Shown here piece by piece: positions 8,401-33,234 of a stretch of 39,688 nucleotides of DNA. How positions within the stretch are numbered: the first letter of the stretch is position 1; each line of letters begins with the position of its first letter. The stretch is from positions 1 to 39,688 of the forward strand of contig JAUCBJ010005193.1 of assembly GCA_032718475.1 (NCBI GenBank), read 5' to 3'. The notes under the pieces were generated by a model. It was given only the letters and a program-made list of their open reading frames with translations. It did no database searches and was not told the origin of the DNA. The stretch is from Nemertoderma westbladi (taxonomy: Eukaryota > Animalia > Xenacoelomorpha). The translations under genes and the position numbers were made by a program.

Positions 8401-8736
8401 GCACTAACAGGTGAGATCTTACTACTCATCAGACAAGCAGGGTAAACTTAATCGGTTAGTGAGTAGATTATTTTTAAAGGCTGTTTAATTTTTTAAAATA
8501 TAAGAAACTTCGAAGGATTAAAAAAAATCTATAAACATTATTGTATTTAATACAACTGATACAAACACCACTACCGCGGATACCTATTGAATGCCTATTA
8601 TCAGAACTAGTGAGGTAATGAAAAACGAAAATGAAACAAAATTGATGAAAATGAAATTAAAATTATTTCGTTTCGTTGAGCCATCCCTGGTTAGATCTGC
8701 CAGTAGTATAGGCTACAGCCACAGCTGATGCACAGA

Positions 8737-10035
8737 CTATGTTGGAGGCCCCCTAGCGGACTCATCGTGGCCGCTTTGGTTGGCCATGGACTCCCCTATG
8801 GGAACCACCACATTAGATTTTATTTTAAATATATTGACATTAACAGCATATCGGAAACTTACTACAAATATATACATGAGATAAAAGTTTAAACTGAAGA
8901 CAATACCAAACATATTAGATATCTGTGCAGCAATATTATTGATAACTAACATTTTTTCATAAGCAGAAATTTGCTCTAATTTAGATAAAGGGTGTAGATT
9001 TCCTCCCATATTGTCGAAAATTGTTCTTATAATGTGAAAGATTATACGAGCACAATCTTTTGCGCACATTAGAGTTCCAGTAACGAGCATCATATTTACC
9101 GCAGCGGACATTTTATTATTGGTTGATGGTATAGATTGCCTCATTAGCTTTCTTAACTTATAAATCATTAGACCGTTTATAGCAAACACTCCTACAATTT
9201 GAATGGTTTTTCTTATGGGAAAGAAATAATCCAGAAACTGATGTGCCCTAATCCAGTGAACGTTATATGATCTCAAATAATAAAGTAAAGCCCAATATTG
9301 CTTTTCACCATTAACGTATCGAATTTCCCCCTTATACATAACTAAATAAGGCCAGTACAGACACGCTGTGTATATAAATAAAACTACTATAATCCCATAT
9401 ATCATGTTATTATTCTTTAATTTTGTATCCTTATACCATACCGGGAAATAAAGGGCTGCAATACGCTCTGCGCCCATAATTAAGGTGAGTGTTGAATCTC
9501 CATATTGTACACACCAAGCAAATATCGGCCAATAACACTGGCATAACCATGAAACAACGTTATAACAGTGAAAGTGCCAAATTTTGTTGTTGTTTTCTAT
9601 CACTGGCTCATATTCAAAATAGTACCACTTAGAATTCTGACCATGTTTTAGTAGTTGGCCAAACGATATAAGAATATCGAAAATTGACTTTAACACCAAC
9701 ATTCTATAAAATAAAGTATTGAATGATTTTTCCTTCACAATTGTTACAATAATTAATATATTGCCAATCAGACCAAATAAATTATATGTTGATATATAAG
9801 GTGTGAGAATAAAATCGTCGACATATTTCCTAGCATTGTGATAAATCTCAAATCCTTTCATCATATCATCATAATCCGATTTAGGAACAGTTTCAAAGTA
9901 TTCGTGGTACAAATTTGTTTCGGTTGTATTCCCTTTAACCATCGGATTGATTCCATTATTGGTAGCTTCAGATATAAATATAAGAATACAACAAAAACAC
10001 AATAACCATTGAATGTGAAAGTTTCTTGCAAACAT
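8737..10035 (-). CDS. Intronless class A (rhodopsin-like) 7TM GPCR, orphan peptide-/chemoreceptor-like
   Basis: About 432 aa from the ATG at 10035. TM1 FGLIGNILII, TM2 LKSIFD, TM3 end MGAERIAALYFP (DRY-like), TM7 SLNFYLMY followed by helix 8 SFR. The N-terminus is hydrophobic and signal-peptide-like. Confidence 0.88.
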   Translation of the reverse strand: MFARNFHIQWLLCFCCILIFISEATNNGINPMVKGNTTETNLYHEYFETVPKSDYDDMMKGFEIYHNARKYVDDFILTPYISTYNLFGLIGNILIIVTIVKEKSFNTLFYRMLVLKSIFDILISFGQLLKHGQNSKWYYFEYEPVIENNNKIWHFHCYNVVSWLCQCYWPIFAWCVQYGDSTLTLIMGAERIAALYFPVWYKDTKLKNNNMIYGIIVVLFIYTACLYWPYLVMYKGEIRYVNGEKQYWALLYYLRSYNVHWIRAHQFLDYFFPIRKTIQIVGVFAINGLMIYKLRKLMRQSIPSTNNKMSAAVNMMLVTGTLMCAKDCARIIFHIIRTIFDNMGGNLHPLSKLEQISAYEKMLVINNIAAQISNMFGIVFSLNFYLMYIFVVSFRYAVNVNIFKIKSNVVVPIGESMANQSGHDESARGPPT

Positions 10036-10187
10036 GTTTATTTCTGCCACATCATATGAGGCTGAAATTAAGGAATTTAAATTTCCCCTATATTTTTTTC
10101 AATAATACAAGTCTTAAGGATTATAAATATGTTTTTTTTGGCATCTGATATATAAGCATTGAACATTCTCTGTAGTTCTACAGTTGA

Positions 10188-11589
10188 TACAATACTGTAC
10201 ATTATTGATACTGTATTGGTACAATACTGTACAGTATTGATACTGTATTGGTACAATACTGTACAGTATTGATACTGTATTGGTAGGCCTACAATACTGT
10301 ACAGTATTGATACTGTATTTGTACAATACTGTACAGTATTGATACTGTATTGGTAGGCCTACAGTACTGTACAGTATTGATACTGTATTGGTACAATACT
10401 GTACAGTATTGATACTGTATTGGTACAATACTGTACAGTATTGATACTGTATTGGTACAATACTGTACAGTATTGGTACAATACTGTACAGTATTGATAC
10501 TGTATTGGTACAATACTGTACAGTATTGATACTGTATTGGTACAATACTGTACAGTATTGATACTGTATTGGTACAATACTGTACAGTATTGATACTGTA
10601 TTGGTAGGCCTACAATACTGTACAGTATTGATACTGTATTTGTACAATACTGTACAGTATTGATACTGTATTGGTAGGCCTACAGTACTGTACAGTATTG
10701 ATACTGTATTGGTACAATACTGTACAGTATTGATACTGTATTGGTACAATACTGTACAGTATTGATACTGTATTGGTACAATACTGTACAGTATTGATAC
10801 TGTATTGGTAGGCCTACAATACTGTACAGTATTGATACTGTATTTGTACAATACTGTACAGTATTGATACTGTATTGGTAGGCCTACAGTACTGTACAGT
10901 ATTGATACTGTATTGGTACAATACTGTACAGTATTGATACTGTATTGGTACAATACTGTACAGTATTGATACTGTATTGGTACAATACTGTACAGTATTG
11001 GTACAATACTGTACAGTATTGATACTGTATTGGTACAATACTGTACAGTATTGATACTGTATTGGTACAATACTGTACAGTATTGATACTGTATTGGTAC
11101 AATACTGTACAGTATTGATACTGTATTGGTAGGCCTACAATACTGTACAGTATTGATACTGTATTTGTACAATACTGTACAGTATTGATACTGTATTGGT
11201 AGGCCTACAGTACTGTACAGTATTGATACTGTATTGGTACAATACTGTACAGTATTGATACTGTATTGGTACAATACTGTACAGTATTGATACTGTATTG
11301 GTACAATACTGTACAGTATTGGTACAATACTGTACAGTATTGATACTGTATTGGTACAATACTGTACAGTATTGATACTGTATTGGTACAATACTGTACA
11401 GTATTGATACTGTATTGGTACAATACTGTACAGTATTGATACTGTATTGGTACAATACTGTACAGTATTGATACTGTATTGGTACAATACTGTACATTAT
11501 TGATACTGTATTGGTACAATACTGTACAGTATTGATACTGTATTGGTACAATACTGTACAGTATTGATACTGTATTGGTACAATACTGT
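10188..11589. repeat. Tandem satellite, 32-bp unit GTACAATACTGTACAGTATTGATACTGTATTG containing an 18-bp perfect palindrome
   Basis: CAATACTGTACAGTATTG is self-complementary. Variant units with GTAGGCCTAC mark a 525-bp higher-order duplication (10289 vs 10814, 10359 vs 10884). Confidence 0.97.
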
Positions 11590-11605
11590 GTATGACATTA
11601 TGATA

Positions 11606-12600: not shown

Positions 12601-13669
12601 GAGCCGTCTCCCTCTAGTGATTCTTAGAGTACTGCTCCAGGGATCGTACGGTAGTAAATTTTTGCGGTAGCGGTAACGGTATGGCGTTGCGGTAGCGGCA
12701 TTTACCGCGGCAGCTAAAAATTTCGCTGGATTAATGAAGTTTAGGTACTCACTTTTTGAGGACATTTTTTTTAAATTGTGGCGTTTATTTTTGGTAAATT
12801 GTTTTCTTGAATTAATAAATTTTAATTTTCTTTTGTTTTTGTTGACAGAAAATACGCTAGAATGCGAATCAATTTTTCATATATAATATGTAACTGCTGT
12901 AATGATGGATGAACGTTATTTTGCATATGCTGATTTTTGAAGGTATAAAAAAGGAAACAATGTGATATTAATGTGATTTTAAGAAAATGCGATATGATAC
13001 GAAAATGTTTTGTAATTTTTTCGTATCATATTATATCATTAATTATTTTCATATCATATCGAACACATAACAACACACCCGAACACACTCCAAAAACTGC
13101 CGAACACAATCGAACACAGTCGAAAATAGAAAGAGCACAAGAAAATAACACCGGGTACCAACTTTTAGATAAAATTAGCCACGCGTTGCTTTTCTATTAA
13201 GAAAATCACCGAAATTATTGAATAAAATTGTCGCAAAATTAAATATTAATTTCTTATCAGGTTGGCCTATCATTTGTTGTGTACTGCTGTACTGTATAAC
13301 AAACTATGTAGGGAAGCCTACCGGGTACCGTACCTGTCGCTGTCACATTTATAGTAATAGCGGGTTAGCTAATACGCCTGTTTGCCTGTGGACTGGAATA
13401 GCTTGGGCTGAGCTGGGACTGATTGCTGAGGATATGAATTAGGAAGTTAGGCCCGTTACAGTACGTACTGTACATGACGTACGGCACAACACGTCGGTAC
13501 AACATAGGTACCGGTACCTACCTGCCTACTGCTGCACTGGAATATAAAGAGCTGGGTCACGCTTAGGTACCTGGCAGGTACCGGTAGGGATCTCTGCCCC
13601 GGTGGTAACCACACTTAACTTAGGTCTACTACTATGTTAGAATATTAGTTGTAGGCTTAGGGTAGGCCT

Positions 13670-14831
13670 TGTTCGCGCTTTTAGACCTTTGGCAGTTTAA
13701 CCTGCCAAATTTAGGTGTCTTCTAGGTTATAAATCGACTTTAGCCTATGACAAGTATTTGATACACTACATTAGCCGAAGCCAGCCTATGCGCGACCATT
13801 CACCCGCTGGATTTACCCGGGAGACTGGATTCGGAAGCTCTAACCTTATTGCTGTGTAGGCCTACTGTATTATTCGATTGATCGTTAATATATAATCTCT
13901 GACAAATATTATTCACTTTCGGGAAATATCAACAGTTCCTTTTTGACGCGGCGCTCTAAGTATGTAAACAGAGTTATGACTTACACTAAACACAACAGGA
14001 TGGCTATTGATTCACGTATAAAGCGCATTCTTTAGGAGATGCTTTGTTATCTATCAAACTCATGCACACTACCGCACAATGCTGCACACCGATCTGCCGA
14101 CCTTCACTAATTTTAGTCACATATAAAGAGAACAGCAACCGACACATGTAGGGCCTATGAAATAGCATTAAATTCACTCCAAAACCAATATAATGTAAGT
14201 CGCAATTGCTATATGTAACCGGTCTCTCACCTTCAGTATATCAAGAAGATTGGGGTTTTACGATTATTTATTGATATTCTCCAAATATAACAATATTCCA
14301 TCAACTGATACAATTAATAACCGACAGTAAATAGCAGTAAAATAATGCGGTGCAAGGTATGTATATGTACTGAGTTGGTTTGATATGGTTTGATAACAGT
14401 TATACGTTTCTATGATCAAAGCCGTTCTAATGTTTGGCTAAAGTCTGAAACACAGAATAATTCCACAGCCGGTGTTCTAGGCTTAGGAAAAATACACACT
14501 GACTGAATTGCGTGAGTTTCTATATGCACTGTCCAACGCAAAGAAAATTGCTCTGATTGGTCGAGTGAGCCGAACAAAGAAAGCCAAAAGCTCCACGTGG
14601 ACATATCAGCTGATAGATGTCGTCATCTGAACTATACTGTATCAAGAGTATTTTGGCGTATTGCGGCATAAAATCGCTAGTTATGTCCGCTAAAGTACAC
14701 ATACAGAAAAATGGCTTTTTATGTCCACTAAAACACCTACACAGTAAGAAAACGGCTTTTTATGTCCACTAAAACACCTACAGAGTACTTTGCGGGAAAA
14801 ATGACTAGCTAGATCCACAAAAGCCTTTACA
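13670..14831 (-). repeat. 3' LTR of the BEL/Pao element (1162 bp)
   Basis: Direct repeat of 28169-29330 at offset 14499; I counted about 8 substitutions by eye. Confidence 0.97.
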
Positions 14832-14840
14832 CCGCTCCCA
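14832..14840 (-). promoter_or_regulatory. Polypurine tract
   Basis: Minus strand TGGGAGCGG immediately precedes the TGTAAAGG start of the 3' LTR. Confidence 0.7.
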
Positions 14841-14909
14841 GAAAATGGGATTTAATTCTATAAAATATAAAAAATCACAGTTTCTAAAATATAAAAATAC
14901 TCTAAACAG

Positions 14910-16461
14910 TTAGTCTTTCTTGCGCAGATGGCGTTTACGCAGTTTTTTGAGGCTAGCAAGAGTCCCTTTCTCTTTGGGGCGAGCCACTTTACTAGGAGGG
15001 CTATAACTCCTGGGTGAAGGGTGCAATACAATTGCATCGGAAGGTTTAGGATTACGGTCGGTGTATCCGCCGGTCGAGGTACCTGGTTGATCGATATCAA
15101 CCTCAGTGGAGCGAGGTCGAACAACCTTGAGAGCGCGTTTTAAGACAGAAGCTCTTACTGGTCCCTGATGGGTCGTTTGCACGAGAGCGGTAGATGGACC
15201 CTGTGTAGTGAGAAACTTCCTTCGGTTTGATGATTCTTTTCATCTCGCGTTCTCGGGCTCTATCGGAATCGATATGCTTCTCCTCGAGCTGATTTTCCTC
15301 CGCTTGTCATTGAAAGCATTTGTCCAAAACTCTTGCAGAAAGTAGAGTCGTCCAAGTTCGATATCTACTTAGAGATTCCGGATTTCCTGATCGAACTGAG
15401 ATAAAGCTAATTCGTTTACCGCTTGGACTTGCTGCTGCAATTTACATTTCTCTAAACAATTATAGGTTCCTTTTCCGATCTTTTGACGAATAGTGTCCAA
15501 CGCGTTTCGTGCAACTCTCTCCTCCGCCTCGGTGACAGGTTGTATCGGGTTAAACTGGGACGATGATACGGTTGAATGGCGATATTAGATGTCCGCGTCC
15601 CAATCCGGCTAGGTAAGATGGGCGAATATTTAGGGAGCACACAACCAGAGTGCCACCGACTAATTGTTCGGTTAACACTAGATTTTTGAACAGTGAGTAC
15701 AGTTCGGGAGGATCCGTGATACTATTAGGATCAAGAGTCTGAGGTCTAACTAGGGAATGAGGAGGTCTGACCGAGTATTCCGGAACTCTGATCATAGGTT
15801 TATTTAAGGATCGTTTGAATCGAACGAGCGTAGGTGATACATCGAACAAGTTTCACTCGAAACTCCCGTAAATATAGCGAGTAAAACCGTGTTTAAAGCA
15901 ACGTCTCCGCGGATGTTTATGTCTTTCGTTTGTTGGTTGGGTCTTGGGCATTCATCGCAATAATACCAAAGACGCACGTCTTGTAGGGGAAATGCGGGTG
16001 ATATTTATTCGGTTTTACAATGTTTCTCTCAAGAATTCCAAATATACGTTGGAGTTACCGCGTTTATCCGGTTCTTTAACGTCTTCTCTTTTGAGTCGAT
16101 TTCGAATAGAAATTTTGCATTCGATTTTCAGTTTATCGTTCCGACTCCGCTGGGTGGGATATTTAAATAGTACCATTTCCCTTTCGGTGTCGACATAGTC
16201 CGTATCGTGTAAATCGATAGGATGGCCAATAGTTAAGAAGTCCATATACGTACCATTACGATGCGTATAGCGAGCGGTGAATTTTCTATAGTCCAATTCA
16301 CGCGTAAGTTGCTCCTGGGACATCGGCGGTTCGATATAACGACCATCGTCCTCCGTAGTAGTTGGACTAACGTCGCCGCGTATCAAGCTATCAACAAACG
16401 CTCGTAAAGGTAGAGTATATCGCTCCCTAATACCAAGATCATCTTCTATCAACTCAGTCAT
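14910..16461 (-). pseudogene. Disrupted accessory ORF of the BEL element in the env position, unknown product
   Basis: ORF pieces 16015-16461 and 15550-15849 share a frame. A further helical-looking segment (PVTEAEERVARNALDTIRQKIG...) and 14910-15182 follow after frameshifts. GC content is coding-like compared with the AT-rich flanks. Confidence 0.6.
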
Positions 16462-18163
16462 AGCTGCTATATGAGTTTATCAATATTATAATGAGTTTAT
16501 AATCAGGCTAGCGGGCGTCGCTGCCTACCCCTCTTGGCCCCCGGACAGTGCAAGATCCTCAGCGCCGATGTACCGTCGTCGCTGTGTTTTTCGCCAACGT
16601 AGTAGCTACACAACGACAACGATAACCGGCACAAGTCACTCCACTGTCCGTCCCAAAGGCTTAGATTTACTTCAGGTTCTTACGGCAGAGTTAGGGCTAC
16701 TTTCACAATTGCGACTCGCTACTGTAAACACACTTTAGTAGTAACATTCACCTATAAACGCACAAATTCCACACAACTGTCACAAATTGTACACATTCGG
16801 GCCATTTGTCCGTTAGTCAGTGCCTTCCAGAATGCCACGTTATTATTATGTATCCTTGGATACTAGCAGTGTACTATTTATTCCCTATGCTATTCAATGG
16901 GGCAAGCTTTCTATTATTCTTTTAACTCACTTCTAATTCTAGCGTGGTTGTTGCTATGGTGACATTATGGAAAGCTAGCGGTAGAATTAGGGTAATTCTC
17001 ATGCATACAGATCTGGGATGCTATTTAATAGTAATTCTTTAATTGTCAATATCCCCTTTATACATGATTTTATGAATTTTATCGGCTATTGACTATATAT
17101 TGGAGATTCTCGCACACTAATACACTTAATAGGGTGAGTCTCCGCTCCCATGATCTATTAATTAATGGAATTTTGGGAATGTTATAAATTGTATAAAAAT
17201 GACAATTTATCAAATTCATTAAAATATGAATTTAAATTTATTCCCGTAAATTTTATTATTTAATATTAAATAGACACAATTTTATTCCAGAGCATGTCTG
17301 GGGACTAGGATCTTGAATTCTAGGAAATTTGTCCTTTTAAGAGTATCGGTAAGTGCTACGATATCTTAATAGACTAGAATTTTAAAGGATCTAAAATTTT
17401 ACAGATTTTAATTTATAGAATTTCTAGAGTTAACTTGTAAGTATTTACTCTATTGTATTTGTTTGACAGATTTTATAAATATTAATAGTTAATATTTAAG
17501 ATGGGCACCGGTTTATTCCAGAACTTGTCTGGGGACGTTAACCACTGATTCTAGAATTTTGTCTTTCAAGTATATCGGTGGGTGCCTCGATATCTTAATC
17601 GACTAGAATTACAGATGGTCAAAGGGTTTAACAGATTTATTTGCGTTGTACGCTACTGTTAGAGGGACATCACGCTACTATATGTATTATTTAATATATG
17701 GTATGAGAGCAATATCGCAAGAAGCAATGTCAGTGAGAAGAGGCAAGTCGTTTCCAAGGTCTACCCAGAGCTTGGTTTAGCCGAGACACGGGGATCTGAA
17801 TTTTGCATTCCTAATACTCTACTTACCAATAATACTTGAATATAGTAGGAGCTTTATTGTACTTTAATAAGTACGGATATTTCATCTTACTGTAGTTACG
17901 TATTTATAATATAATACGGACAGTAAGGAAAGAGAAAAAGAAATTATTTCTCGCCGTCGCACTAAATATATAATATAGGAGTAATTAAGTAATAAACGCG
18001 AATATATATGGCACTAATCTACTAAATAATCGCTAAAATAACATTCTACTAAATAAAATTAAAGAAAACGATTATAATAAAATTATATAATAATACATAC
18101 CTAAATATAAAATAATAAAGACAGATATAAAATAATATTGTCACACACCCACTCCAGACGCTG

Positions 18164-21100
18164 TCACTTTGGGGAGTCCCTAGATGTTTGTTGGATTAGG
18201 GAGGTGGTCGTGGGAAGAGTATCTTGCCTTCCATAGTTTCCGGAGAGTTCTCTGTCTCTTTCCAGTAAACATAAACGACCAACTGGGCGATTGAGTTGCT
18301 GTGTCTCGAAGACAATTCCCGGTTTCTTAAAGTTACGTCGCATGACGACGAGTTCTACCGATCGCACCAAACCATCATCCGAGATATGAGTCTCGATGAT
18401 ACGACCTGTCTGCCACCGCTTACGTGGAAGATCTGAATCCACAATAAGGACCATGTCTCCAGAGCTGACGTTTTCTTGCTGCGCAAACCACTTAGTTCGA
18501 AGTTGTAGCGTGGGCAGATAATGTTTTTCGAAATGGTCAGCGAAACGACGGGATAACAACTGCATAAGTTGCCAAGTTTGCCGGCAGTATTCGTCTCCGT
18601 CCGTGATTTCCGATCGTGGGAGCATGGCTACAGGTTTCTTCAGTAGGAAGTGCGCGGGTGTTAGCGCTTCCAGGGCATCGGGACTCGATGAGACTGGCAT
18701 AAGCGGTCTCTCATTGAGATAGGCGGCGATTTCCTCCATTAACGTCCGCAAAAGTTCGTCGGTGAGATACGCGCGGCACGGCACTATAAAGTGAAATGCG
18801 GTCTTCACGCTTCTGATTAATCTCTCCCAACTTCCTCCCCACCAAGGGGCGTCGGCGGCGTTGAAGGTCCAGCTAGACGCTGTTACCCTTAGCTGATCGT
18901 CCACCTGTCTTTGGTTCCAATCCTTGACGTAAGCCTTGATTTCATTGTTGGCACCAATGAAGTTCGTTCCCTTATCAGATCTCATCATGTTACTAGTTCC
19001 AAAGCGAGCGATCTGTCGGCGTAAGCTCAATAGGAAGCTGTTAGTAGATAAATCGTTCACCATATCGAGATGGATAGCTCTACAAGTCATACAAACAAAG
19101 ATGACACACCATCTCTTGACTATAGTCCTAGCACGATAAACTTCAATAGGGCCAAATAAATCCACACCGGTATTAGTAAAGGGTGGTTCATAGAAGCTTA
19201 CTCGTTCCCTAGGTAATTCTGCCTCTCGCTGTGTTAAAGGCCTACTGAATGCTTTCCTACAGGGTATGCAGTTCCTAAGAACTTGGTTCAGAGCTCTACG
19301 GGGTTTATAAAAATAATAGCGAGTTCGAATTTCGCTAAGAACTCGTTCTCTACCAGCATGATAAAGCTTACTGTGAACATCTACAATCATCTTGATTTGT
19401 ATTTCAAGATTTCTAATGAGTATGGGAAACTTAGTGTCAAAGGATAATGGAGCATTAGTTAGTCTTCCTCCAACACGTATTAACCCATCTATCATTGTAC
19501 TAGAGAAACGATCCCTTAAGCGCATCTGTGGATTTCTCAACAACAGGAAATACTTATCGGAATCCTCATAGCATTGCAGGAGTCTCAGTATCTGCTTATT
19601 GGTTTCTTCATGCTCCTGGTAACTGATCTTCTCCTTCAGAAACCTGTCGGATATCTTGTATTTGGGAAGATCTTTAACAACATGGACCTGCGCAGATGTC
19701 AGTGGAGCGGTATCACTAGTGGTCTTCGTCCTGGAGTAGTGATGATGAAAACATCGCTTTAAATATGTAACGGCCTTACAGAGCCGATTCCAGGAACTAT
19801 AATGATGTATCGCTCTCTGCAGGAGAGGTGAGAGTCCTTGCGAGACATCTGGTATTCCAGATTTCCAATCCCTCTCTCTGATTTCCACAACAGACTTATT
19901 TGTGGCTGTGGGTTTCGGATCCAAAGCGTCATCTCCAGAAGTGTGTAGTACAGACATATCTATCACAGGTTTAAATAACTTCGATTTACTCGCCCGGGTT
20001 TTAGGTTTGACTTTCTCCGCTCCCTTGGCCTGTCTAATCTCCGCCGTAGTAAGATGAGGAGGCCATTCATCCTCTTTTTTGCTTAGGAAGTCGGGTCCAC
20101 CTAACCAGTCTGGAGTATTTATCAGTTCTTGTGGAGTTGCTCCCCTGGAGGCCATGTCGGCTGGATTAATTGTTCCGGGGCAATGTCTCCATTGATCTAT
20201 CTTCGTGCGACTAAGTGTAATGGCTACTCTGTTGGTAACGAAGACGCTGAACTGACAGACTTCATTGGTTATATACTCCAACACGAGCAACGCATCTGTC
20301 CAATAGACAGTTTTCTCCAGTGGATAGTCTATCTGTTGCGTTACATTCCAGCCGATGGCTGTAGCGTATAGAGCAGCCTTTAACTCCGCTCGAGGAACTT
20401 TCAACTTGTTGTTTATCAATGCCTTAGAGGTAACCAAGGCGACTTTGATTCCATCCGGAGTTTCAACTCTCAGGTAGGCTACTATACCTATTCCCATATC
20501 GCTGGCGTCTCCAAACACATGGAGTTGATAGGAATACGTAGGGAGAACATGACAAAAATATGAACGGGAAATTATAAAGTTCTCGATGGCTGGTAGAGAA
20601 TCTTCCCATTTCATCCACTTCTTTAATAGTTCTCCCTTAAGTGGATCATCCCATGAGTGGTTTTCAAGCCACATTTGTTGTACTAAACTCCGAGCAATCA
20701 ATATAACTGGGCTAATAAATCCCAATGGATCGAAATAAGTGCTCAGGATACTTAGACAAATCCATTTAGTCCGAACTGGATTATCTCGCTGTTTTAGCTG
20801 GAAAAACAGGATATCTCTCTCTGTGTCCCATTTCAAACCAAGTGTCTTGGTTTCTGGAAGATCGTCCTTGATTAGGTCTAGATCTTTAACTCCTCGATCT
20901 TCTACCGGGATCGATTCCAGAAACTCATGGGAGTTGCTGGTGAATTTAGTTAATCGAAATCCACCTCTTTTCAAGCACTCTACCGTTCCTTTGGCGACAT
21001 CAATGGCTTCTTCAACCGATGGGAGGGACTTTAAATTGTCGTCCATGTATATATCCCGTTTGATGTTGTCGATAACCTCTTTAGAGAAGGCGTCCCGGTT

Positions 21101-21274
21101 GTCATCAGCAGTGGGGCGCACCACTGAGCAGGCGTTTGAAGGGCTTGAGATGATCCCAAAAGCCTGGATGGTCATCCAATACTCCACTGGTTTCTGGTTG
21201 AGGTCTCCTTCAGGCCACCACAGAAATCGTAGGCTGTCTCGATCCCTATCCAGCGCCTTGACTTGTAAGAACAT
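18164..21274 (-). CDS. pol: BEL/Pao pol: RT C-terminal half, RNase H and integrase (open part of a disrupted polyprotein)
   Basis: RT YMDD; RNase H LHVFGDAS; integrase HSKLYHAG...CIPC zinc finger, GVDLFGP, RSDKGTNF and GGSWERL (DDE); Pao-type C-terminal domain YLPTLQLRTKW. Confidence 0.95.
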   Translation of the reverse strand: MFLQVKALDRDRDSLRFLWWPEGDLNQKPVEYWMTIQAFGIISSPSNACSVVRPTADDNRDAFSKEVIDNIKRDIYMDDNLKSLPSVEEAIDVAKGTVECLKRGGFRLTKFTSNSHEFLESIPVEDRGVKDLDLIKDDLPETKTLGLKWDTERDILFFQLKQRDNPVRTKWICLSILSTYFDPLGFISPVILIARSLVQQMWLENHSWDDPLKGELLKKWMKWEDSLPAIENFIISRSYFCHVLPTYSYQLHVFGDASDMGIGIVAYLRVETPDGIKVALVTSKALINNKLKVPRAELKAALYATAIGWNVTQQIDYPLEKTVYWTDALLVLEYITNEVCQFSVFVTNRVAITLSRTKIDQWRHCPGTINPADMASRGATPQELINTPDWLGGPDFLSKKEDEWPPHLTTAEIRQAKGAEKVKPKTRASKSKLFKPVIDMSVLHTSGDDALDPKPTATNKSVVEIRERDWKSGIPDVSQGLSPLLQRAIHHYSSWNRLCKAVTYLKRCFHHHYSRTKTTSDTAPLTSAQVHVVKDLPKYKISDRFLKEKISYQEHEETNKQILRLLQCYEDSDKYFLLLRNPQMRLRDRFSSTMIDGLIRVGGRLTNAPLSFDTKFPILIRNLEIQIKMIVDVHSKLYHAGRERVLSEIRTRYYFYKPRRALNQVLRNCIPCRKAFSRPLTQREAELPRERVSFYEPPFTNTGVDLFGPIEVYRARTIVKRWCVIFVCMTCRAIHLDMVNDLSTNSFLLSLRRQIARFGTSNMMRSDKGTNFIGANNEIKAYVKDWNQRQVDDQLRVTASSWTFNAADAPWWGGSWERLIRSVKTAFHFIVPCRAYLTDELLRTLMEEIAAYLNERPLMPVSSSPDALEALTPAHFLLKKPVAMLPRSEITDGDEYCRQTWQLMQLLSRRFADHFEKHYLPTLQLRTKWFAQQENVSSGDMVLIVDSDLPRKRWQTGRIIETHISDDGLVRSVELVVMRRNFKKPGIVFETQQLNRPVGRLCLLERDRELSGNYGRQDTLPTTTSLIQQTSRDSPK

Positions 21275-22890
21275 GCCTTCTATATCGGAGGCGAAAGCGA
21301 TTGAATATTAATCATATTGAATCTTAAGAGTATTCCCAACAAGGATTGGAGTAAGTTGGGTCCTGGTAACAACTCGGAATTAAGGGATTGGCCCATGTAG
21401 AGGGCGGAGCCGTCAAATACTACCCGAACTTCATTGGGTTTACCGGGTTAGGGAACGTAATGATGTGTTAGATAGTACGTTCTCTCAGTTATGGGTGTTT
21501 CTTCCGGTACTCGCTCCGCATATCCCTTGTTAATAAATTTCTTCAACTGAGTCTTGTACATTTCCTTAGCTGAAGCATTTGCCGTAAGGCGTCGATGTAG
21601 TTGCGCAATTCTTTTCTCCGCCAAGGGTCGGTTGTTTATAAATTTAGGTTCTCACTTTCGAAATGGTAGACCGATTTCATATCTACCTTGATCTTTAAGA
21701 AAACGTGTAGTTGTCTCCTGGATCTGCTTGGCTCTTTCTTCTTCTACCGATAGGGCCTTATCGTAGGAATTGGGCTCTACAGCCTCTTGAGTAAAGAATC
21801 GTACGGCGTGTTCATCTCGAGTCTTCGCGTTGTAGCAGTCTATCACTTCATTCAGTTCGTCGTTGTACTCAACTTGTTCTGCTGGATGAATGAGGTGACA
21901 TAGGTTCACTTGGTTTTGCCAAGTTTCGTTTTCTGTAAGGAGGTCGATGGTCTTCTCCTCGTCGAAGAGTTGGTGGATGTCATCATTATCTGAGGAGTAT
22001 GGTGTTCCCTCAGTTATGTCGTCTACCTCACTGAACTCCTCTTCCCATTCACTTACCTGGTATACCCGTTCTTTGGGTAACCTTTCCATGAGAATTCTAC
22101 GGGAAGGGCCAGTAAAGTACCAACCTACTCTAGTTCTTCCCGCATAGGCTTGTAGTGGTTGCGGTTGAGCAGGCCGTCTCTCCAATGTCTCAAGCGCCTC
22201 ATGCGCATTTTGGCCGATGAGTATTTGCACTCCAGGGTAGTCTGTGTTGAATCTAGGTATCTTAAGCTGCTGGGTCAAATCGTCCTCATCCCAGTTATAA
22301 GGTTCCACTTGGCTGGTAGCGAAGTTCTTTATCGCCACCATTTTTACTGACCTTATACTGTGTTCTCCTAGTTCATCCTGGGGGGTGGACAATGCACCTA
22401 CATAGTAATCTGCAATTACTGTAGATTTCCAAACCTGCATAATTCCTGACATGTTTAACTTAGTTCGGAACTTGGGTTGTCCAGCAAAGATGTCTTCGGC
22501 TAGTTCTTTGTCGATGAATGTTCCTGTGCTGCCGGAGTCAAGGAGGGCGTTCACTATATAACTTTTGTCAGGACCGTGGACTCTCAACTGCACTACGGGA
22601 AATTCTCGGATTCCTACGTTGGAAGTTGGGGCTTTCCAAGATGGTTGTCGGTCAGGAGTAGTTAGGGGGGGCTCACTGTCGGTGTCCTTTTCATAAGTAA
22701 GTGCTCGATACACTGTGGTATTTATTAGGTAACAGGATTCGTTTTCATCGGAGAATTCGTCCGTATAGAATCCTTCCATCTCAGAACTTTGGTCAGTGTC
22801 GTTCACATCACTGAATTGGACATGTAGTTCGGACTCACTTACCTGACTCGAGCTGTTTCGTTCGAATTCAGTGTGCAACAAGATATGATG
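21275..22890 (-). pseudogene. pol: BEL/Pao aspartic protease and RT N-terminus, disrupted
   Basis: Protease ALLDSGST; RT motifs YYLTHH, VRVVFDGS and SLNSELLPGPNLL. TGA at 21652-21654, TAA at 21448-21450 and a frameshift near 21310. Confidence 0.92.
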
Positions 22891-25800
22891 CACTTTGCAC
22901 ACCTTGCGTCGGAATAACAGGTTCGCTGTTGGTGTCCTTGTCTGAGGCAATTATAACACAACCGCTTATCCCACATGACTTCACGTCTATCTTTTAATGA
23001 TTTCTTTAGGAATTCATCACACACAACACTCAAACGGTGGGGCCCGTCACACAGCGCACATTTCGGTTTGATGTTAATTACCTTACTTTGAGTAACGTTG
23101 TGCACACTCGTTCTTTCTTCGGGCTTTCTTACATGAATTCTCTTAGGAGACGTAGGAGGAGTTTTTCTTACCTGTTCTCTCCTGTCATTGGTTCGGGACT
23201 TGAATTTACTTACGTCTTTAGGCGCTTTGTTGACGTAGTAAGATCTTTCAGTATCTTTCCCGCGGTCTTCTTCTTGAGAAGCCTGGCTTTCGCCGTCGTC
23301 GGTATAACACACTGGTGTTACCTTTCTCCTAGAAACGGGTTTCTCACTTACCTTATTTTCCGGTGTCTTCTCTCTGGACTGTTTTAGGAGCTGTAATTTT
23401 ACTTCTCCATCTAAGAATGACATGAGATCAGCCATGGTTGGGTCTCGTCGTTGTTGTTCCATCATATATAACACTTTCTTATCCCAGCGTGTACCTACTC
23501 CACCCTTTGGTAAAGTAGAGGCCACGGCTCCAATAACCATAGAACTCTGATATTCATGAGACTTACCTAGCCAATCTAATTGTCTACAGATCTCCTGAAT
23601 CTCATCGGAAAACTCTATAATCCCGCTGCTAATGAACTTTCGGGGCGCTACCAATTTTGCATACAAATACCTAGCTATGTTATTCCTATTACCATACCTG
23701 ATGTTTAGTGTATCCCAAACTTGTCTTAATCCATCTGGATGTCCAATAAACTTTAACGCCATTAACTTGGGAGATCCTTCCAAGCACTCGATGAGGAATC
23801 TAAGTTTCTCTCCGTTAGATAGCACAGAGTTCTGTATGTTATCTTTGTAATATTCATTAAAAGGTAACCATTTCATCTCATCTCCATTGAACTTGACGAT
23901 CTCTCCCACCTTTACCGCTTGACGGGCTTCGGTTCTAGCCATTTAACGCGTAAAACTTTCTTGGGCCATCATATTATTTAATATCGAGTTATCGGTATAT
24001 AAATTTCTCGGATTATTATCAGGTCTATATGGAATATCATTGTCAACAGGTTTATAATTACCCTTAATAGGGTTTACTATAGGAGTTTCTACTTCACTAG
24101 CAGTATAGATGCGTGTAGGCTCCACACCTTGCGCATGAAATACTTCAGACCTAACAGGTTGACACATTGTTACCGGGGTTGGTGGTATACCCCTTTGGGT
24201 ATTTACTAATTTATCGCGTTCTAACGCGATACTCTGCTGCACTTCTTGCAACTCTAACCTACTTTCCCTTACTGTGCCCTTGAACTGTTGAACAGTCTCC
24301 TGCATCTGCCCGAGCAGGAGATCCATCCCCCGCCGTCTCTCATCCACCCACTCGACCGCCGAAGCGGGAGCCGCCAACATAGTAGCGGGTGGATGGGGGA
24401 CAACGGGCGACAAATCATTGATATTTCGCTCGGAGTCCAGGACAGGAACTGTCTCATGGGCTGTTCTGCTGGGCACAGGTAGTTTAGTGCTATGCAAAGG
24501 GAATTTAGAGGTAGGTTCTGGGAGTACAGGTGTCTCTATCACCGAAGGCGTGGCTTCGAGAACAGGCCTAATTATTTCAGGCTCATCTACTATAGTAGGG
24601 AGTCTTGCTGCCCTAATAATTTGGTCTGTGGGTTCTCTACTACCTAAGTCTGTACTAGCTAGTTGCCTTCTAACAGCTGGGGGCAAATCAGGCAAGTTCT
24701 GACGGTGGGGCATTCTTCTACGCCTGCTTAGACGAGATCTATTTCCTCCGCCTTCAGGATCGGTGGTATCGCCTTCATCAGATGATGTAAATCCCTGCCT
24801 TTTGGGAGTAGATCGACTTATCATCTGCATTTGACTAGCTGTTAACTGTTTATTTATGCAGTCTTGCTTCTCTTGAAGATTTTCCAACTCTAGTTGGGTG
24901 GTCTCTTCAGACGCTCTCCGTTCTGCTTCTGCCACTGCCTCTGCCGCTTTTCTTTCCGCTTCTGCCGCTGCTACCTTTCTTTCCGCCTCTGCCTCTGCCG
25001 CTGCCGCTGCCACCTTTCTTTCAGCCTCTGCCGCTGCCGCTGCCGCTTTTCTTTCAACTTCTGCCGCTGCCGCTGCTGCTGTTTTTCTGTCTTCTATACG
25101 TTTTTTCTTTACTTGTTCTTCTTGGACTCTAGCGATGCGGAGGCGTTCATCAAATTTAGCTTGGTTCGCAGCTAACATTTCCACATCTATTGCGTCCAAC
25201 ACAAGCTTGGCTCCTTCACTATTAGGGCGAAGTCCAGCCAGCCGTCTCCTCAACTCTTCATCACCTAGAAATTGTTGATAGTCTGACAGATAGATGTCAA
25301 TAGCGTCCCTCGTCTGCGGTTTCTCTGCTGTCGCTTCGCTTTCCACTTGAGAAAAGGTAGCGTCTGTTGATTCTCCATGGGTTGAGTGCTCAGCCAGCTG
25401 AGATTTCCACTGGGCCGTTCCTTGAACCTTGAGACCCACCCGCTGGAACCAAGTCTTTACGGCAACTTGCAACGACGTGTCTTGTCTTCTTTTCGAAGCT
25501 TCCTCAAAGGCCGATAAGATTAGTCTGATTCTTAGAATTCTTTCTCGAACTTGATAAAGCAGCTCTCCCTGCTCTTGAGGTCCTTGGGGTTGTTGAAACA
25601 GTTGTTCCTCTAATCGCTCCAAAGAGCTGAAGAATCCCTGTACATATCCTGCTGCTGACCTCTTCCACACAGCTGGATCACTAGTGTCTTTTGTCACTCC
25701 CATCCTGTGTATGTCTTCCCAGGCAGCTTCCGATAAGTCAAACGGGAGTCCGGGTCTGGGGAAGTTCCATTGCGACTCGACAATAGACTTCAGTTCCTCC

Positions 25801-26261
25801 CTTGTGTATCCCGCATAACTATCCTTGGTCGATCGCTTACTTCTCGCCCAATCAATTTGGTGTTCCTCCACCGCAATCAATACCCTAGTGAGTACGGCTG
25901 CAGGAAGGATGAGAAGGGGATCCGAATAAACCGCATCTGCCATCTTTGCTCCACGCTCGGGTGTCAGCTCTACAGTATCCGAACTACTGGAGCTGTCGGG
26001 CCGCTGAGGAATAAGTTCTCGGCTAGGGTGTTGCTGCTGTTTGACAGCTGCTTCTTGATCCCGCTTGACCTGAGCCCGAGTGCCTATGATAGACCTACGG
26101 TGTTGGACTAGCCTAGGGTCTGATACTACTACTGGAGGGATGATCTTTCTTACAGTAGGAGGTGAGTTGAACTTTGGTCTCACACGTTCTACACTCCTGT
26201 CTGGGTCACAGATGGTTGTATCTAGGAGACTGTCTGACAGGTTTTGCTTTGTGTCAGACAT
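22839..26261 (-). pseudogene. gag: BEL/Pao gag with an in-frame stop and a frameshift
   Basis: A 772-aa N-terminal ORF, TAA at 23943-23945, then in-frame capsid-like KFNGDEMKWLPF and knuckles CALCDGPHRLSVVC and CYNCLRQGHQQRTC. The third knuckle CAK/CKVHHILLH is split by a frameshift near 22885. Confidence 0.92.
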
Positions 26262-26397
26262 GTTTGTTTATACAGTTGAATGCCTACTGCTATAATTATA
26301 GTTAAAGCAAGTCTAGTAATTCAGTATCACTGTTAGCCTAGTAATTAATTACCGATATCGTTACTCTATGTAACGCGATATATATACACAATATATT

Positions 26398-26651
26398 AGA
26401 ATACCGGTATACACTTATAGTATATATATAAGTATTATTACAGACTAGGTTTGTCACAGAATACCGGTATATAATTTCAGCTCAAATATATAGAAATATA
26501 TAATAAGCCTATCGTGAATACCGGTATACAGCTTGCACTTATAGTATATATAAGTATTATTACAGACTAGATTTGTCACAGAATACCGGTATATAATTTC
26601 AGCTTAAATTTATATAAATAAATATAATAAGCCTATTGTAAATACCGGTAT
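26398..26651. repeat. About 120-bp tandem duplication in the retroelement leader
   Basis: AATACCGGTAT occurs five times; the block CACTTATAGTATATA...CAGACTAG...TTTGTCACAGAATACCGGTATATAATTTCAGCT occurs twice. Confidence 0.85.
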
Positions 26652-28168
26652 GTCAATTATTTTAGAATAATTGAATTTCTGAATTTTTAGGGGTTACTTT
26701 ACTTTACTTTATTACCGTTATTTAAGCAGTAGTCCAACTGATATTAAGACCTAATTGATGTATGACAGGCCTACTGTTTTATAAATCGGTTTGAGTTGAT
26801 TTATAATATATATATATATACCCTGTAATGGGTTTTGTCAATATTTGAAATAAATGTTATTATTTCTGGGAAGGAGTCACTACACAGAAGCTGTACACTC
26901 TCAGTGAAGTGCTACTTGTTGGACACTAAAACAAATAATTCTAATTTACTAAGTTACTTATTACTACAAATTATGTACAATTCGGGGTGAGATTACAATC
27001 TCTAAATAAACACAAAAATTACACGTACGAATTTTTAGGGTTAATTTTACAAGAAATCTACAAACCAGCCTAACAAAGGGTTAGAATATCTGGTTATTAC
27101 AAACGGACAGGATAATACGGTATTTGAAAGTAATAAAGCTGTAGTAAATATACTGCGTTGTCCAGATAGGAAAAATACCACCGTCTGACGACTTATAGCC
27201 GTAGCGCTATAAGTACTACGTTATGTTTCACGGAGTGTTCCTACCTAGAAGTTAATTACCGCGGCCTACCAGAGCCAACGTGCCTATTAACCACTTTACA
27301 ACACAAATATACTGCCTACACACTAATCACCTTCGGAAAGCACTGTACACTAAACCCTAAATTAGGTACAAGTACTTATACAACAAATAACCAGCAGTTA
27401 AAAATACTTGTACAGCTAAAAGAACCACGGTATCTGCCGGAGTGACCAAAGCATAAAATCTCCAGTCTTTACCTACGCCAAACAGCCCTGATGTAGTACC
27501 GGGGTTAATTTAACTATAACGGTATGTATAACAAGCACTATTACTGTAGGAATAAACTTGGGGTTTGTGAATGTTGCGAATAATCGCATAAACTCTGAAT
27601 AATAAATATTATGCTACCCGTACAGACTACACAAACAAAATACAGACCAAACGCTGGCAGACTACTATCAAGCCTAAATAAACTACAGTATATGCAGACT
27701 CCGAAATGGTTAGTTAGTATGAGTTCTAACCGAGTAGTACGACTTATTCTTTCGGGGGGATTTACCTTACAGCACTGGATGCCCACCACGTTCCTAACTA
27801 GTACTTTATCGGACATACACTCTACACACACTGCAATCTCTGCAGACTTAACAACAGTCAGACAACAGTCCAGCCTACAAATTACCTGTACAATCTGAGC
27901 AGGCTTACACGCCTTCTGCTCAATATTAACTTACAAATAAATAAAACTGACAGAAATAAGTAAAATCCCAATAAAAAACCAGGGCGGGCCCTCCCTGATT
28001 AAATATCAAGACCTACCGGTATATAATTATCAAAATCGAATAATACTGATGTACCTGTACTGCTATAAGTACCGGTTCGGGTGGTTAGGTAGTCAGGCCT
28101 ACTGGTTACCGGTCGACTGGTACTTCAGCTTTATTGCCTACACTGCAATCAGAAGAAATAACTGTTAT

Positions 28169-29330
28169 TGTTCGCGCTTTTAGACCTTTGGCAGTTTAAC
28201 CTGCCAAATTTAGGTGTCTTCTAGGTTATAAATCGACTTTAGCCTATGACAAGTATTTGATACACTACATTAGCCGTAGCCAGCCTATGCGCGACCATTC
28301 ACCCGCTGGATTTACCCGGGAGACTGGATTCGGAAGCTCGGACCTTATTGCTGTGTAGGCCTACTGTATCATTCGATTGATCGTTAATATATAATCTCTG
28401 ACAAATATTATTCACTTTCGGGAAATATCAACAGTTCCTTTTTGACGCGGCGCTCTAAGTATGTAAACAGAGTTATGACTTACACTAAACACAACAGGAT
28501 GGCTATTGATTCACGTATAAAGCGCATTCTTTAGGAGATGCTTTGTTATCTATCAAACTCATGCACACTACCGCACAATGCTGCACACCGATCTGCCGAC
28601 CTTCACTAATTTTAGTCACATATAAAGAGAACAGCAACCGACACATGTAGGGCCTATGAAATAGCATTAAATTCACTCCAAAACCAATATAATGTAAGTC
28701 GCAATTGCTATATGTAACCGGTCTCTCACCTTCAGTATATCAAGAAGATTGGGGTTTTACGATTATTTATTGATATTCTCCAAATATAACAATATTCCAT
28801 CAACTGATACAATTAATAACCGACAGTAAATAGCAGTAAAATAATGCGGTGCAAGGTATGTATATGTACTGAGTTGGTTTGATATGGTTTGATAACAGTT
28901 ATACGTTTCTATGATCAAAGCCGTTCTAATGTTTGGCTAAAGTCTGAAACACAGAATAATTCCACAGCCGGTGTTCTAGGCTTAGGAAAAATACACACTG
29001 ACTGAATTGCGTGAGTTTCTATATGCACTGTCCAACGCAAAGAAAATTGCTCTGATTGGTCGAGTGAGCCGAACAAAGAAAGCCAAAAGCTCCACGTGGA
29101 CATATCAGCGGATAGATGTCGTCATCTGAACTATACTGTATCAAGAGTATTTTGGCGTATTGCGGCATAAAATCGCTAGTTATGTCCGCTAAAGTACACA
29201 TACAGAAAAATGGCTTTTTATGTCCATTAAAACACCTACACAGTAAGAAAACGGCTTTTTATGTCCGCTAAAACACCTACAGAGTACTTTGCGGGAAAAA
29301 TGACTAGCTAGATCCGCAAAAGCCTTTACA
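28169..29330 (-). repeat. 5' LTR of the BEL/Pao element (1162 bp)
   Basis: Minus strand TGTAAAGG...GCGCGAACA; direct repeat of 13670-14831. Confidence 0.97.
28997..29098 (-). promoter_or_regulatory. Candidate LTR promoter (E-box, CCAAT, TATA-like, Inr-like)
   Basis: In minus-strand order: CACGTG 29093-29098, CCAAT 29055-29059, TATAGAAA 29016-29023, TCAGTCAGT 28997-29005; AATAAA lies downstream at 28766-28771. Motif matches only. Confidence 0.45.
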
Positions 29331-29734
29331 GGCCTGATCTGATAAGAAATGAATATTTAATTTCGCGACAATTTTATTCAATAATTTCGGGGATTTTCTT
29401 ATAGAAAAGCAACGCGTGGCTAATTTTATCTAAAAGTTGGTACCCCGTGTTATTTTTTTGCGCTCTTTCTATTTTCGACTGTGTTCGATTGTGTTCGGCA
29501 GTTTTTGGAGTGTGTTCGGTTGTGTTCTACTGTGTTCGCTTGTGTTCTGTAAAAAGATATATTCCAATTAACCTTCATACGTACCTTATTCTAATTTGTA
29601 TTGGTGTCCCTTGGGGTCGTTTGCGACCCCAGTATATTTTACTATTAAAATAGGTACAAGTTCCATAATATTTTTAAATATTAGAATACTCCTACATTAA
29701 TTGACATTTTTAAAACATATCAACAATCTTGGAA

Positions 29735-30120
29735 ACTTCGCGCAGCACGTGAAGTATATTTCGTACTACATAAATAAAAGCATTTTATAGTTTATTAAAA
29801 TTCTTCAAGTAATTGGTGGATCACCCAAAAGGATATTTTAATGATGATAGTGTAATTTAAATATTATTTGCCTATAAACAAACTGGATACCCTCTCATTT
29901 TGTCTCAATCTAGCATGTAAATATGACAAACCCTACCAACCCACCCTCCCACCCCATTGCCCAATTTACCCATTGTTCAAGTAAGCATTTAAATTTGGCT
30001 ACTATTGAAACATAATATTCAATATTATTCAATGTAATTCGTAGTGTGCTGTATATTACAGCAGAGATCCTATGCAGTTCGTACACGTTCGTGGGGCCTT
30101 CGCGCAGCACGAGGCCCAGT
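29735..30120 (+). mobile_element. Possible non-autonomous Helitron-like insertion inside the piggyBac
   Basis: CTTCGCGCAGCACG at both ends; the 3' copy sits in a GC hairpin GGGCCT...AGGCCC. Confidence 0.35.
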
Positions 30121-31235: not shown

Positions 31236-31425
31236 CACACGGAAATTCTACTTGGAAAATTTCAAAACTTTTGCCAAACAACATGTGTACCAAGTTTGGA
31301 TAGATTTCATCAAAGATTGGCCGAGTTATTAACGTTTAAAATTGAACACGACAGAACGACAGAACGACAGGTTGATTAATGGTACCACTACGCTAAGGCT
31401 CACTCACTTCGTGGCTCGCCCCACA
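31236..31425 (+). mobile_element. 3' part of an interspersed repeat (DINE/HINE Helitron-like), copy 1
   Basis: TGTACCAAGTTTGGATA...GAGTTATTAACGTTTAAAATTG, a short ACGACAGA repeat and terminal CGCCCCACA; clearly homologous to 36400-36613. Confidence 0.65.
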
Positions 31426-33234
31426 TAGCAACTGCGTGGGCTTGACAGGCAAAGTTCTTACATTTCGTGCATACTAGTACAGTTTTTACATCACTGGCTC
31501 GGTCATGTAATGAGCAACGACGGCGCTTGTGGTCGTGGTTGCATTCAGAAATGGAGGAGTATGACGTTGAATTTCCGGAAGTTCTCTCATCTTCTTGGGT
31601 ATGGGCGACGTTAATGATATCAATAGCGGCTTGTGACCGTGGCATAGTGGATCTGGCCATCATAAATGGCCTAATAAGTTCGCGGCTAAGGCGTTCTAGA
31701 AATAATCGTCGTCTGTAAAGCTTTCCTTTCTTCCAATCAGGGAATAGCTCAACCAATATAATGTAAGCATTATAGGCTGGAATATCTACCATGTTGCTGA
31801 ATACAGCCACTGGCCATCGGCGTGTCTTCCTCTTTACAGTATAAGTAGACAAACACTTGTCAGCCGAATCTACACCTCCTTTATATTTATTGTAGAAAAG
31901 TATTATATCTGGTTTCTTGTCAGCACGATTACTATTGACAGATGCACGCGGTACTCATCATCGTCACAACCTTATCTTTTTGCGACAATATGATAGAATG
32001 GTTGTATCATCTCTATGTCCAAATATTGAGCTGCACAGAACTCGGTTCTTGGGATCAACAAACTCCTTCGGTAATTCGGGCTTATTCTATCTGACTGTGC
32101 CAACTAATGTTTGATTGCGTTTCTTTAGTAACTGTCCCAAATTATACGATGTATAAAAATTATCAGTAGTAATATTTCTCCCAGACAAACCTTCAGTTAG
32201 CTGCAAAACAACCCTCTGGCCCTGGTTGCTGGTTCACTTCACGTTTATCCTGCCGTCCTATATAAGGTTGTAAATTCCATATATAACTCAGCATGCCTGT
32301 GACAGCAACCCAAAACTTGATGCCATATTTAGCTGGTTTATTAGGCATGTATTGTCTGAAAGAACACCTTCCTCTAAATTTCAGTAACTGTTCATCAACA
32401 CGCAGATTTTCATTGGGAACGTAAGCAAATGGCAGTTGTTTTACAAATTTATCCCATATGGTTCTAATAGCAGCAAACTTATCTAAGTCTCGGCGACGCC
32501 CTTTCTTATCATCAAATCTCAAAAATCTACATATTTCTCTAAAACGTTTTATTGGCATGGTCACTGGAAATATTGCGTTACCCGACTCCGCTGACCATAA
32601 TTGGTCAACAGCTTCTCCAGCTGAACGGAAAACTCCAGCTAAAATATGTAACCCCGGGTATGCATTAAACTCATCATAGGTTAGCAGTTTCCAGTTATCC
32701 CCCAACTTACTTGTAGCCTCCGTATTAGTCATCTCAATAACCATACTTGTTGTAATGCTCAAAGTTATAAAGATATAAAATGTGTTCAAAATATCAGTAC
32801 AATTGGTAATGGCATATCTGGTTGGACCGGGTTTATTCCAAATAATATTTCTTTGCTGAGACTTGTTATTATAAATCGTTTTTTTGCTCCATATGATACG
32901 TTTATCTATATTCTTTTTCGAGTGTCGAGAATAATAAAATTCCTCTGAATCATCGTTAGATCGAGTAGATCTTGAAGAACTGGAAGAATCGCTATCCTCA
33001 TCCTCGCTATCCCTTCCAGAATCGTCGCTGCCATCTGCCTCATCGATAGGGATTTCTCCATCCGATTCTTCAGCACTGGAATTGCTGAAATCATGATCGT
33101 CCTCATCTCCTGATGTTTCTGCTCCATGTGATATACAAGGAGAACTCTTCCGAAACCAGTGGGCGTGTAACCGCGCAAATTCCAATGAAATCCACACGTG
33201 CAGATCTTATTCGTTTAGGGTATTGCTTACTCAT
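31424..33234 (-). pseudogene. piggyBac transposase pseudogene (PGBD-like)
   Basis: Acidic N-terminus; VDEQLLKFRGRCSFRQYMPNKPAKYGIKFW; ITTDNFYTS near 32150-32175; YNKYKGGVDSADK near 31860-31895; KRKTRRWP; C-terminal Cys-rich domain. Several frameshifts. Confidence 0.93.

Follow-up and report, generated by a model that had tools for sequence, protein, structure and literature searches.

A BEL/Pao retrotransposon of Nemertoderma westbladi with a predicted self-primer in its long terminal repeat

The element and its surroundings

The window, that is, the whole stretch of 39,688 nt that was analysed (Nemertoderma westbladi, contig JAUCBJ010005193.1), contains a single BEL/Pao LTR retrotransposon of 15.66 kb in minus orientation (29330 to 13670). 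It is bounded by two LTRs of 1162 bp with TG...CA ends, the 5′ LTR at 28169–29330 and the 3′ LTR at 13670–14831, which show 8 differences from each other, and by a 5-bp target-site duplication (TSD) (29331–29335, second copy at 13665–13669). A purine-rich tract resembling a polypurine tract (PPT) (14832–14839) adjoins the 3′ LTR on its 5′ side. The gag-pol region (minus strand, 18164–26267) is disrupted by in-frame stops at 23945 and 21654 and by frame changes near 22900 and 21340; the element is young yet broken.

The assignment to BEL/Pao was made because the frames carry the domains PF03564, PF05380, PF17921 and PF18701. In fact, the Gag-Pol presents the PR-RT-RH-IN order together with BEL/Pao-specific domains, its best homologues all have the same domains, and the LTR length within 0.2–1.2 kb, the TSD and the PPT are as described for the group. 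The 18-nt primer-binding site (PBS) for tRNA-Arg or tRNA-Gly is lacking, so the described primer trait fails and the phylogenetic membership stands. Conversely, the BEL/Pao domains and the lack of any chromodomain match in Pfam place the element outside the Tf1/sushi group. The YMDD motif of the reverse transcriptase (at 21049) is present, and so are the acidic columns of RNase H and integrase that are invariant in the alignment used here (A1) and that we take to be catalytic residues. The proteins nearest to the element are only 37–40% identical to it.

The non-coding parts are unusually long, with 3.3 kb before the 3′ LTR (14832–18163) and a leader of 1.9 kb (26268–28168). A 153-aa ORF in the 3′ region (16015–16476) found no match in Pfam or Atlas, and neither did the 774-aa N-terminal frame (23943–26267) placed ahead of the recognisable gag region, inside which a low-complexity charged repeat was found (24888–25103).

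The retrotransposon is flanked by 201-bp inverted repeats (13060–13260 and 29339–29538, 94.5% identical). These probably represent the termini of a non-autonomous DNA transposon, ~0.8 kb long, that was the target of the insertion. Elsewhere in the window, a broken transposase with a PF13843 (DDE_Tnp_1_7) match, presumably piggyBac-like, was found on the minus strand at 31400–33206, and a 453-aa frame at 8737–10098 presented a weak match to the 7TM GPCR Srsx family (E 2.5e-5) and no match in a homologue search. Minisatellite arrays were observed at 1–1200 (19-bp period), 7498–8531 (131-bp) and 10145–11600 (32-bp).

The sequence after the 5′ LTR and its complement

On the sense strand, the 5′ LTR (29330–28169) ends in ...GCGCGAACA and is directly followed by ATAACAGTTAT at 28168–28158. 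This putative 11-nt PBS has no TGG, and the first TGG occurs 188 nt past the LTR end, in keeping with the original prediction of none for about 190 nt. As had also been noted, its exact complement is found in the LTR, at 28902–28892 in the 5′ copy, the predicted self-primer, and at 14403–14393 in the 3′ copy, with no third site in the window. The polarity is that of a primer, since in the duplex the 3′ end of the 11-mer falls on the base that directly follows the LTR, and its extension would copy U5 and R.

The rough estimate of 1 in 1000 for a chance match held when it was recalculated: shuffling the LTR 20,000 times with its dinucleotides preserved produced an 11-nt match at offset 0 in 21 cases and at offsets 0–3 in 61, and among the 13,326 internal 11-mers there are 3, counting that of the PBS, whose complement occurs in the LTR. 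The 11-mer is AT-rich and, as had been noted, quasi-palindromic (5+1+5), and the isolated duplex of primer and PBS is weak (–10.1 kcal/mol). In another reading, the element is primed by a host RNA without a CCA end, such as a tRNA half or another small RNA, and the LTR match arose by chance with the help of the AT-rich quasi-palindrome. Priming by half-tRNAs exists in copia groups, according to the accessible part of PMC6317226, and a genome scan examines many elements, so that events of 1 in 1000 do happen. No tRNA gene was found in the window, and the Rfam search of 13000–30000 gave no match of note (one at E 0.029, far under the gathering score).

Three extensions of the self-primer model were considered, of which the first two were rejected. 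Pairing past the 11-mer looked plausible by eye and was not significant, since 127 of 200 shuffles were equally good. A splice-built primer in the N. westbladi element was discarded, the best junction giving 10 nt with a poor donor. Finally, an intron in U5 that would shorten the distance between primer and PBS was not supported: sister copies are variable at both donor-like sites, 28729 and 28483 (variants at 28727 and 28483).

Predicted RNA structure around the PBS

The local fold, which covers 28375–28120, has a z-score of –3.04, and 2 of 200 shuffles were as stable. Two predicted stems flank the PBS. The first joins a U5 arm (28347–28360) to a leader arm placed 8 nt after the PBS (28136–28149) through 13 of 14 possible pairs (28360–28347 with 28149–28136; probability 0.96–1.0), and 1 of 100 shuffles was as good. 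The second joins an upstream arm (28282–28294) to an LTR-end arm (28172–28186) that stops 3 nt before the PBS, through 6+6 pairs (probability 0.76–0.95). The 8-bp hairpin at the U5 end that had been described from the sequence (28187–28208, arms 28208–28201 and 28194–28187, 6-nt loop) was recovered with a mean pair probability of 0.94 and stacks inside the LTR-end stem in the predicted fold. The PBS bases, 35–91% unpaired, would thus be displayed in the loop between the two stems.

Similar stems flank the tRNA-type PBSs of retroviruses, so that such stems mark a displayed PBS and not the kind of primer. Moreover, a near-perfect U5-leader helix (at most 4 of 100 shuffles as good, in a simple helix test) was found in 2 of the 17 self-complementary relatives described below and in 1 of 6 controls. 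Folds of the whole region from four candidate starts did not form the pairing of primer and PBS, and forcing this duplex costs 2.9 kcal/mol under nested-only folding. Like the weakness of the isolated duplex, its absence from these folds counts against the pairing, although it would be a pseudoknot to the U5-leader stem, which a nested folding program cannot draw.

Promoter-like motifs and the probable position of the primer in the transcript

The promoter-like motifs from which a start near 29000 had been proposed are present at 28999–29098 of the minus strand, as consensus matches only: an E-box (CACGTG, 29098), CCAAT (29059), a TATA-like (29024) and an Inr-like motif (29005). These sequences would place the start of transcription at about 29003, with ~100 nt ahead of the primer. 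A TATA-like motif was found in 10 of the 18 elements compared below, 31–184 nt before the primer, and the primers of the spliced type described there have only 3–8 nt in the first exon. Because of these two traits, the primer probably lies within the transcript, unlike that of Tf1, which forms the 5′ end. The AATAAA at 28766–28771, which had served as a marker of the R region, was confirmed in this copy; it is private to it, and more than 99% of the sister depth in both runs reads GATAAA, so the signal at 28771 cannot serve to define where R ends in the family.

The internal position bears on a variant of self-priming in which a primer of the element's own sequence acts in trans, supplied by a second packaged genome or by short RNAs of solo LTRs and cut by a host nuclease, not by RNase H in cis. 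The distance of 723 nt between primer and PBS, compared with 44–216 nt in the 17 relatives, speaks against the main reading and would be accommodated by such a route, and a start ~100 nt upstream is unexplained by a single cleavage of the Tf1 type. The family is also abundant, and the sequencing depth over the LTR end far exceeds that of the leader. On the other hand, the flanking stems suit the design of Tf1, and the Tf1 precedent, according to the accessible part of PMC7175516, is cleavage in cis by RNase H. Priming in trans was judged unlikely, and the cis-acting self-primer is retained as the preferred reading.

Sister copies within the family

Parts of the stretch were contained in 6 of 7 sequencing runs, none of them recorded as RNA, and the shares of variants were taken from two DNA runs, X1 and X3, of two studies, in both of which the element family is abundant. 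The sisters retain a non-TGG site after the LTR, and therefore the loss in this copy of a normal TGG PBS still kept by its sisters, the outcome named beforehand as adverse to the prediction, is not the explanation.

The variants considered are the 40 listed out of 73 that reach at least 12% over 28105–28960. At PBS base 8 (28161), another letter is carried by 48% of the sister depth in X1 and by 66% in X3. A change at the partner base, 28899, is absent from these 40 of 73 variants, so that many sister copies may carry a mismatch here. The lowest share among the 40 is ~35%, and a compensating change outside them, if any, is probably rarer than that, assuming the ranking inferred for the variants. 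This variation of about half of the sister depth at a PBS base with no partner change among the variants listed is a point in favour of a host-RNA primer. Nevertheless, the shares at the PBS and at its LTR partner need not match, since the depth of the LTR includes solo LTRs. A parent with a mismatched PBS could also give rise to the two variants, as one of the strands is templated by the primer. Immediately behind the PBS, a variant at 28157 (26% and 42% of the depth) would add a twelfth pair with 28903.

Nine of the listed variants fall between 28136 and 28360, none of them in the hairpin. Pairing in the stems is kept by the changes at 28181 (U-A to U-G) and 28284 (G-U to A-U), and the variant at 28352 coincides with the lone mismatch in the U5-leader stem; the sister variants listed are thus compatible with both flanking duplexes. 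Like the AATAAA, the donor-like sites in U5 (28729 and 28483) are not traits of the family. The depth of sister contigs falls ~30- to 50-fold at 28859–28887, just 3′ of the primer, and most sisters differ from this copy there, as indicated by the drop in depth between shared flanks.

Self-complementary sites in related elements

Scans with alignment A1 yielded 112 related loci, 80 from metagenomes and 32 from a genome collection. The latter (L081–L112) are BEL/Pao Pol loci in a prokaryote collection, likely animal DNA in MAGs and in one Wolbachia assembly. Neither Pol relatives in viral contigs nor matches to the LTR-end patterns in metagenome or viral contigs were found. A direct repeat around Pol was present in 43 of the 112 loci and no flanking repeat in 69, and the 5′ LTR end was fixed by the direct repeat in 20 loci, one of which, L008, belongs to the family of L006 and was discarded because its end proved false. 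L064, which duplicates L026, and the satellite repeats L083 and L107 were set aside, and no confident LTR end was obtained for L039, L055, L046, L061, L063, L082, L085, L091 and L012.

In nine loci of four families, a TGG occurs within 7 nt of the LTR end and the match to the own LTR reaches only 4–5 nt; L103 has the same short match and no TGG, and was grouped with the tRNA-type sites on the basis of a presumed resemblance. Among the nine non-TGG loci with an independently fixed LTR end, seven match their own LTR over 11–12 nt, three of them contiguously and the other four with a match that bridges a GT..AG junction; L033 (7 nt) and L092 (8–9 nt) fail. Ten further self-complementary ends were found by scanning, a procedure that itself selects for matches. 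Where the LTR start of a scanned locus is known (seven loci), the end selected is located 22–143 nt ahead of the gag ATG; of the other ACA sites in these loci, 3 of 195 reach 10 nt. The scanned locus L049 is of the TGG type, with a 9-nt match.

In all, 17 non-TGG relatives match their own LTR over 10–13 nt with differing letters, 5 contiguously and 12 across a GT..AG junction (L026, L042, L011, L088, L006, L015, L016, L017, L020, L028, L035 and L084). The junction-type donors are mostly GTAAGT, and a palindrome often spans the junction. Counting the N. westbladi element, the match lengths of the 18 elements are 10 nt in one, 11 nt in eleven, 12 nt in four and 13 nt in two, with a mode of 11, and the match begins 0–3 nt after the LTR end in every case. 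Matches of at least 10 nt between the PBS of one element and the LTR of another occur in 3 of 306 pairs, two of them within the close pair L026/L017. The covariation of the two 11-mers that had been called for is therefore observed across the 17 relatives; within the family, the variant at 28161 stands without a partner among the 40 of 73 variants listed.

That each of 17 relatives, whose PBS letters differ, is complementary to its own LTR and not to those of others argues against a host RNA and a chance match, and the N. westbladi element, with its length of 11, its offset of 0 and a PBS that starts with purine-T as in the relatives, fits their pattern. These relatives form one side of a branch with support 96/89 (32 rows, LG+G4), recovered with 85 in a 42-row mixture tree in which 13 of the 17 were labelled. 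The element itself is a long branch, placed weakly as sister to the 17-member clade (61/80), because of which the evidence from the relatives carries over loosely; that it is not firmly inside the self-complementary clade leaves the host-RNA primer some footing, and this alternative is considered improbable, to about the same degree as priming in trans.

A perfect palindrome of at least 6 nt occurs in 10 of the 18 sites, compared with 2.7 expected (0 of 5000 shuffles, kinship uncorrected), and the site of the element is itself a 5+1+5 palindrome. Palindromes are a trait of dimer-initiation sites. The match of LTR and leader could accordingly be real and serve a structural role, in dimerization, packaging or as an RNA switch, with priming by another route. 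Such a role would leave unaccounted for the constant position 0–3 nt after the LTR end, the primer polarity and the length centred on 11, and no other primer site is present; of the alternatives raised, it was held to be marginally the least probable.

A proposed model of self-priming

Taken together, these results make it probable that the element family uses a fragment of its own RNA to begin reverse transcription. Transcription would begin at ~29003, as judged from the motifs, and the 11-mer at 28902–28892 would pair with the PBS in the loop kept open by the two predicted stems. A cut after 28892, probably by the RNase H of the element, would provide a 3′ OH, by analogy with Tf1, and the reverse transcriptase would extend this primer, copying U5 and R. 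The acidic columns of RNase H are present. That primer and PBS pair in vivo, that the RNA is cut behind 28892 and, by analogy with Tf1, that RNase H makes this cut are proposals. A start near 29003 would leave ~100 nt 5′ of the primer unless a second cut trims it. Since gag-pol is broken in this copy, the enzymes would have acted at insertion or would come from sister copies. The original prediction of tRNA-free priming in an animal BEL lineage is thus supported by the 17 relatives, the non-TGG sisters and the predicted flanking stems, with a mechanism that we infer.

A broader scenario may be advanced tentatively, at somewhat less than even confidence: in a widespread animal BEL/Pao clade, the tRNA primer would have been replaced by an internal 11-nt self-primer, splice-built in most members, and the N. 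westbladi element, with its ready-made primer and a full Tf1-like pretzel, would be an early-branching sister in the pre-intron state, of an origin independent of Tf1/sushi and plant copia. If true, self-priming in BEL/Pao would add another convergent origin of tRNA-free priming and, we infer, would escape control by tRNA fragments; a large self-priming branch would change the reference profile of Belpaoviridae as host-tRNA-primed and would explain BEL/Pao elements missed by PBS-based annotation. An internal or splice-built primer also raises the question of how the 5′ end and the constant length of 11 nt are set.

Comparison with known priming systems

No report of self-priming in BEL/Pao was found in the literature searched, in which subscription journals, Repbase notes and supplements are thinly represented, so that a prior mention is possible. 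The main texts of PMC554778, PMC3118150 and PMC6238403 make no mention of PBS, tRNA or priming, and the accessible parts of PMC3601003, PMC5443660 and PMC8220671 hold nothing on BEL priming. Self-priming has been shown for Tf1; in the portions available of the respective sources, it is proposed for Tj1 (PMC4600332) and Tf2 (PMC5341516), and predicted for Tcn1 and for the copia TAR group, Houba and Osr-1 (PMC6317226), by a test that asks for an LTR complement of at least 10 nt starting 0–5 nt after the LTR. Self-priming, cited in the original prediction as described for the Tf1/sushi group, is thus also predicted outside it. The Tcn1 clade and the copia TAR group share with the present element a prediction by the same test, and belong to other superfamilies with plant and fungal hosts.

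Belpaoviridae are described by the ICTV as having an 18-nt PBS for tRNA-Arg or tRNA-Gly, a length of 4.2–10 kb and LTRs of 0.2–1.2 kb (PMC8742986). The element shares with Belpaoviridae (Semotivirus) the domain set and order, the TG...CA LTRs, the short TSD and the purine tract, and differs in the lack of a tRNA-type PBS, in its 15.66 kb, and in the 1.9-kb leader and 3.3-kb 3′ region.

The closest functional parallel is found in Tf1 of Schizosaccharomyces pombe, in which RNase H cuts after base 11, according to the accessible part of PMC7175516, and in which a pretzel of three duplexes is required, two further duplexes joining the neighbourhood of the PBS to parts of the LTR downstream of the primer, as stated in the part available of 10.1101/2022.12.06.519325. 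Both further duplexes are predicted in the N. westbladi element too, and a PBS directly after the LTR and complementary to 11 LTR nucleotides is common to it and to Tf1/Tf2, Tj1, Tosmo1-3 and the Tf1/sushi group (Ty3/gypsy chromoviruses). In contrast to these, the element has BEL/Pao proteins and not those of a chromovirus, its primer lies 723 nt from the PBS, and in 12 of its 17 relatives the primer would arise only through splicing; whereas the primer of Tf1 is the 5′ end of the transcript, that of the element is predicted ~100 nt inside it.
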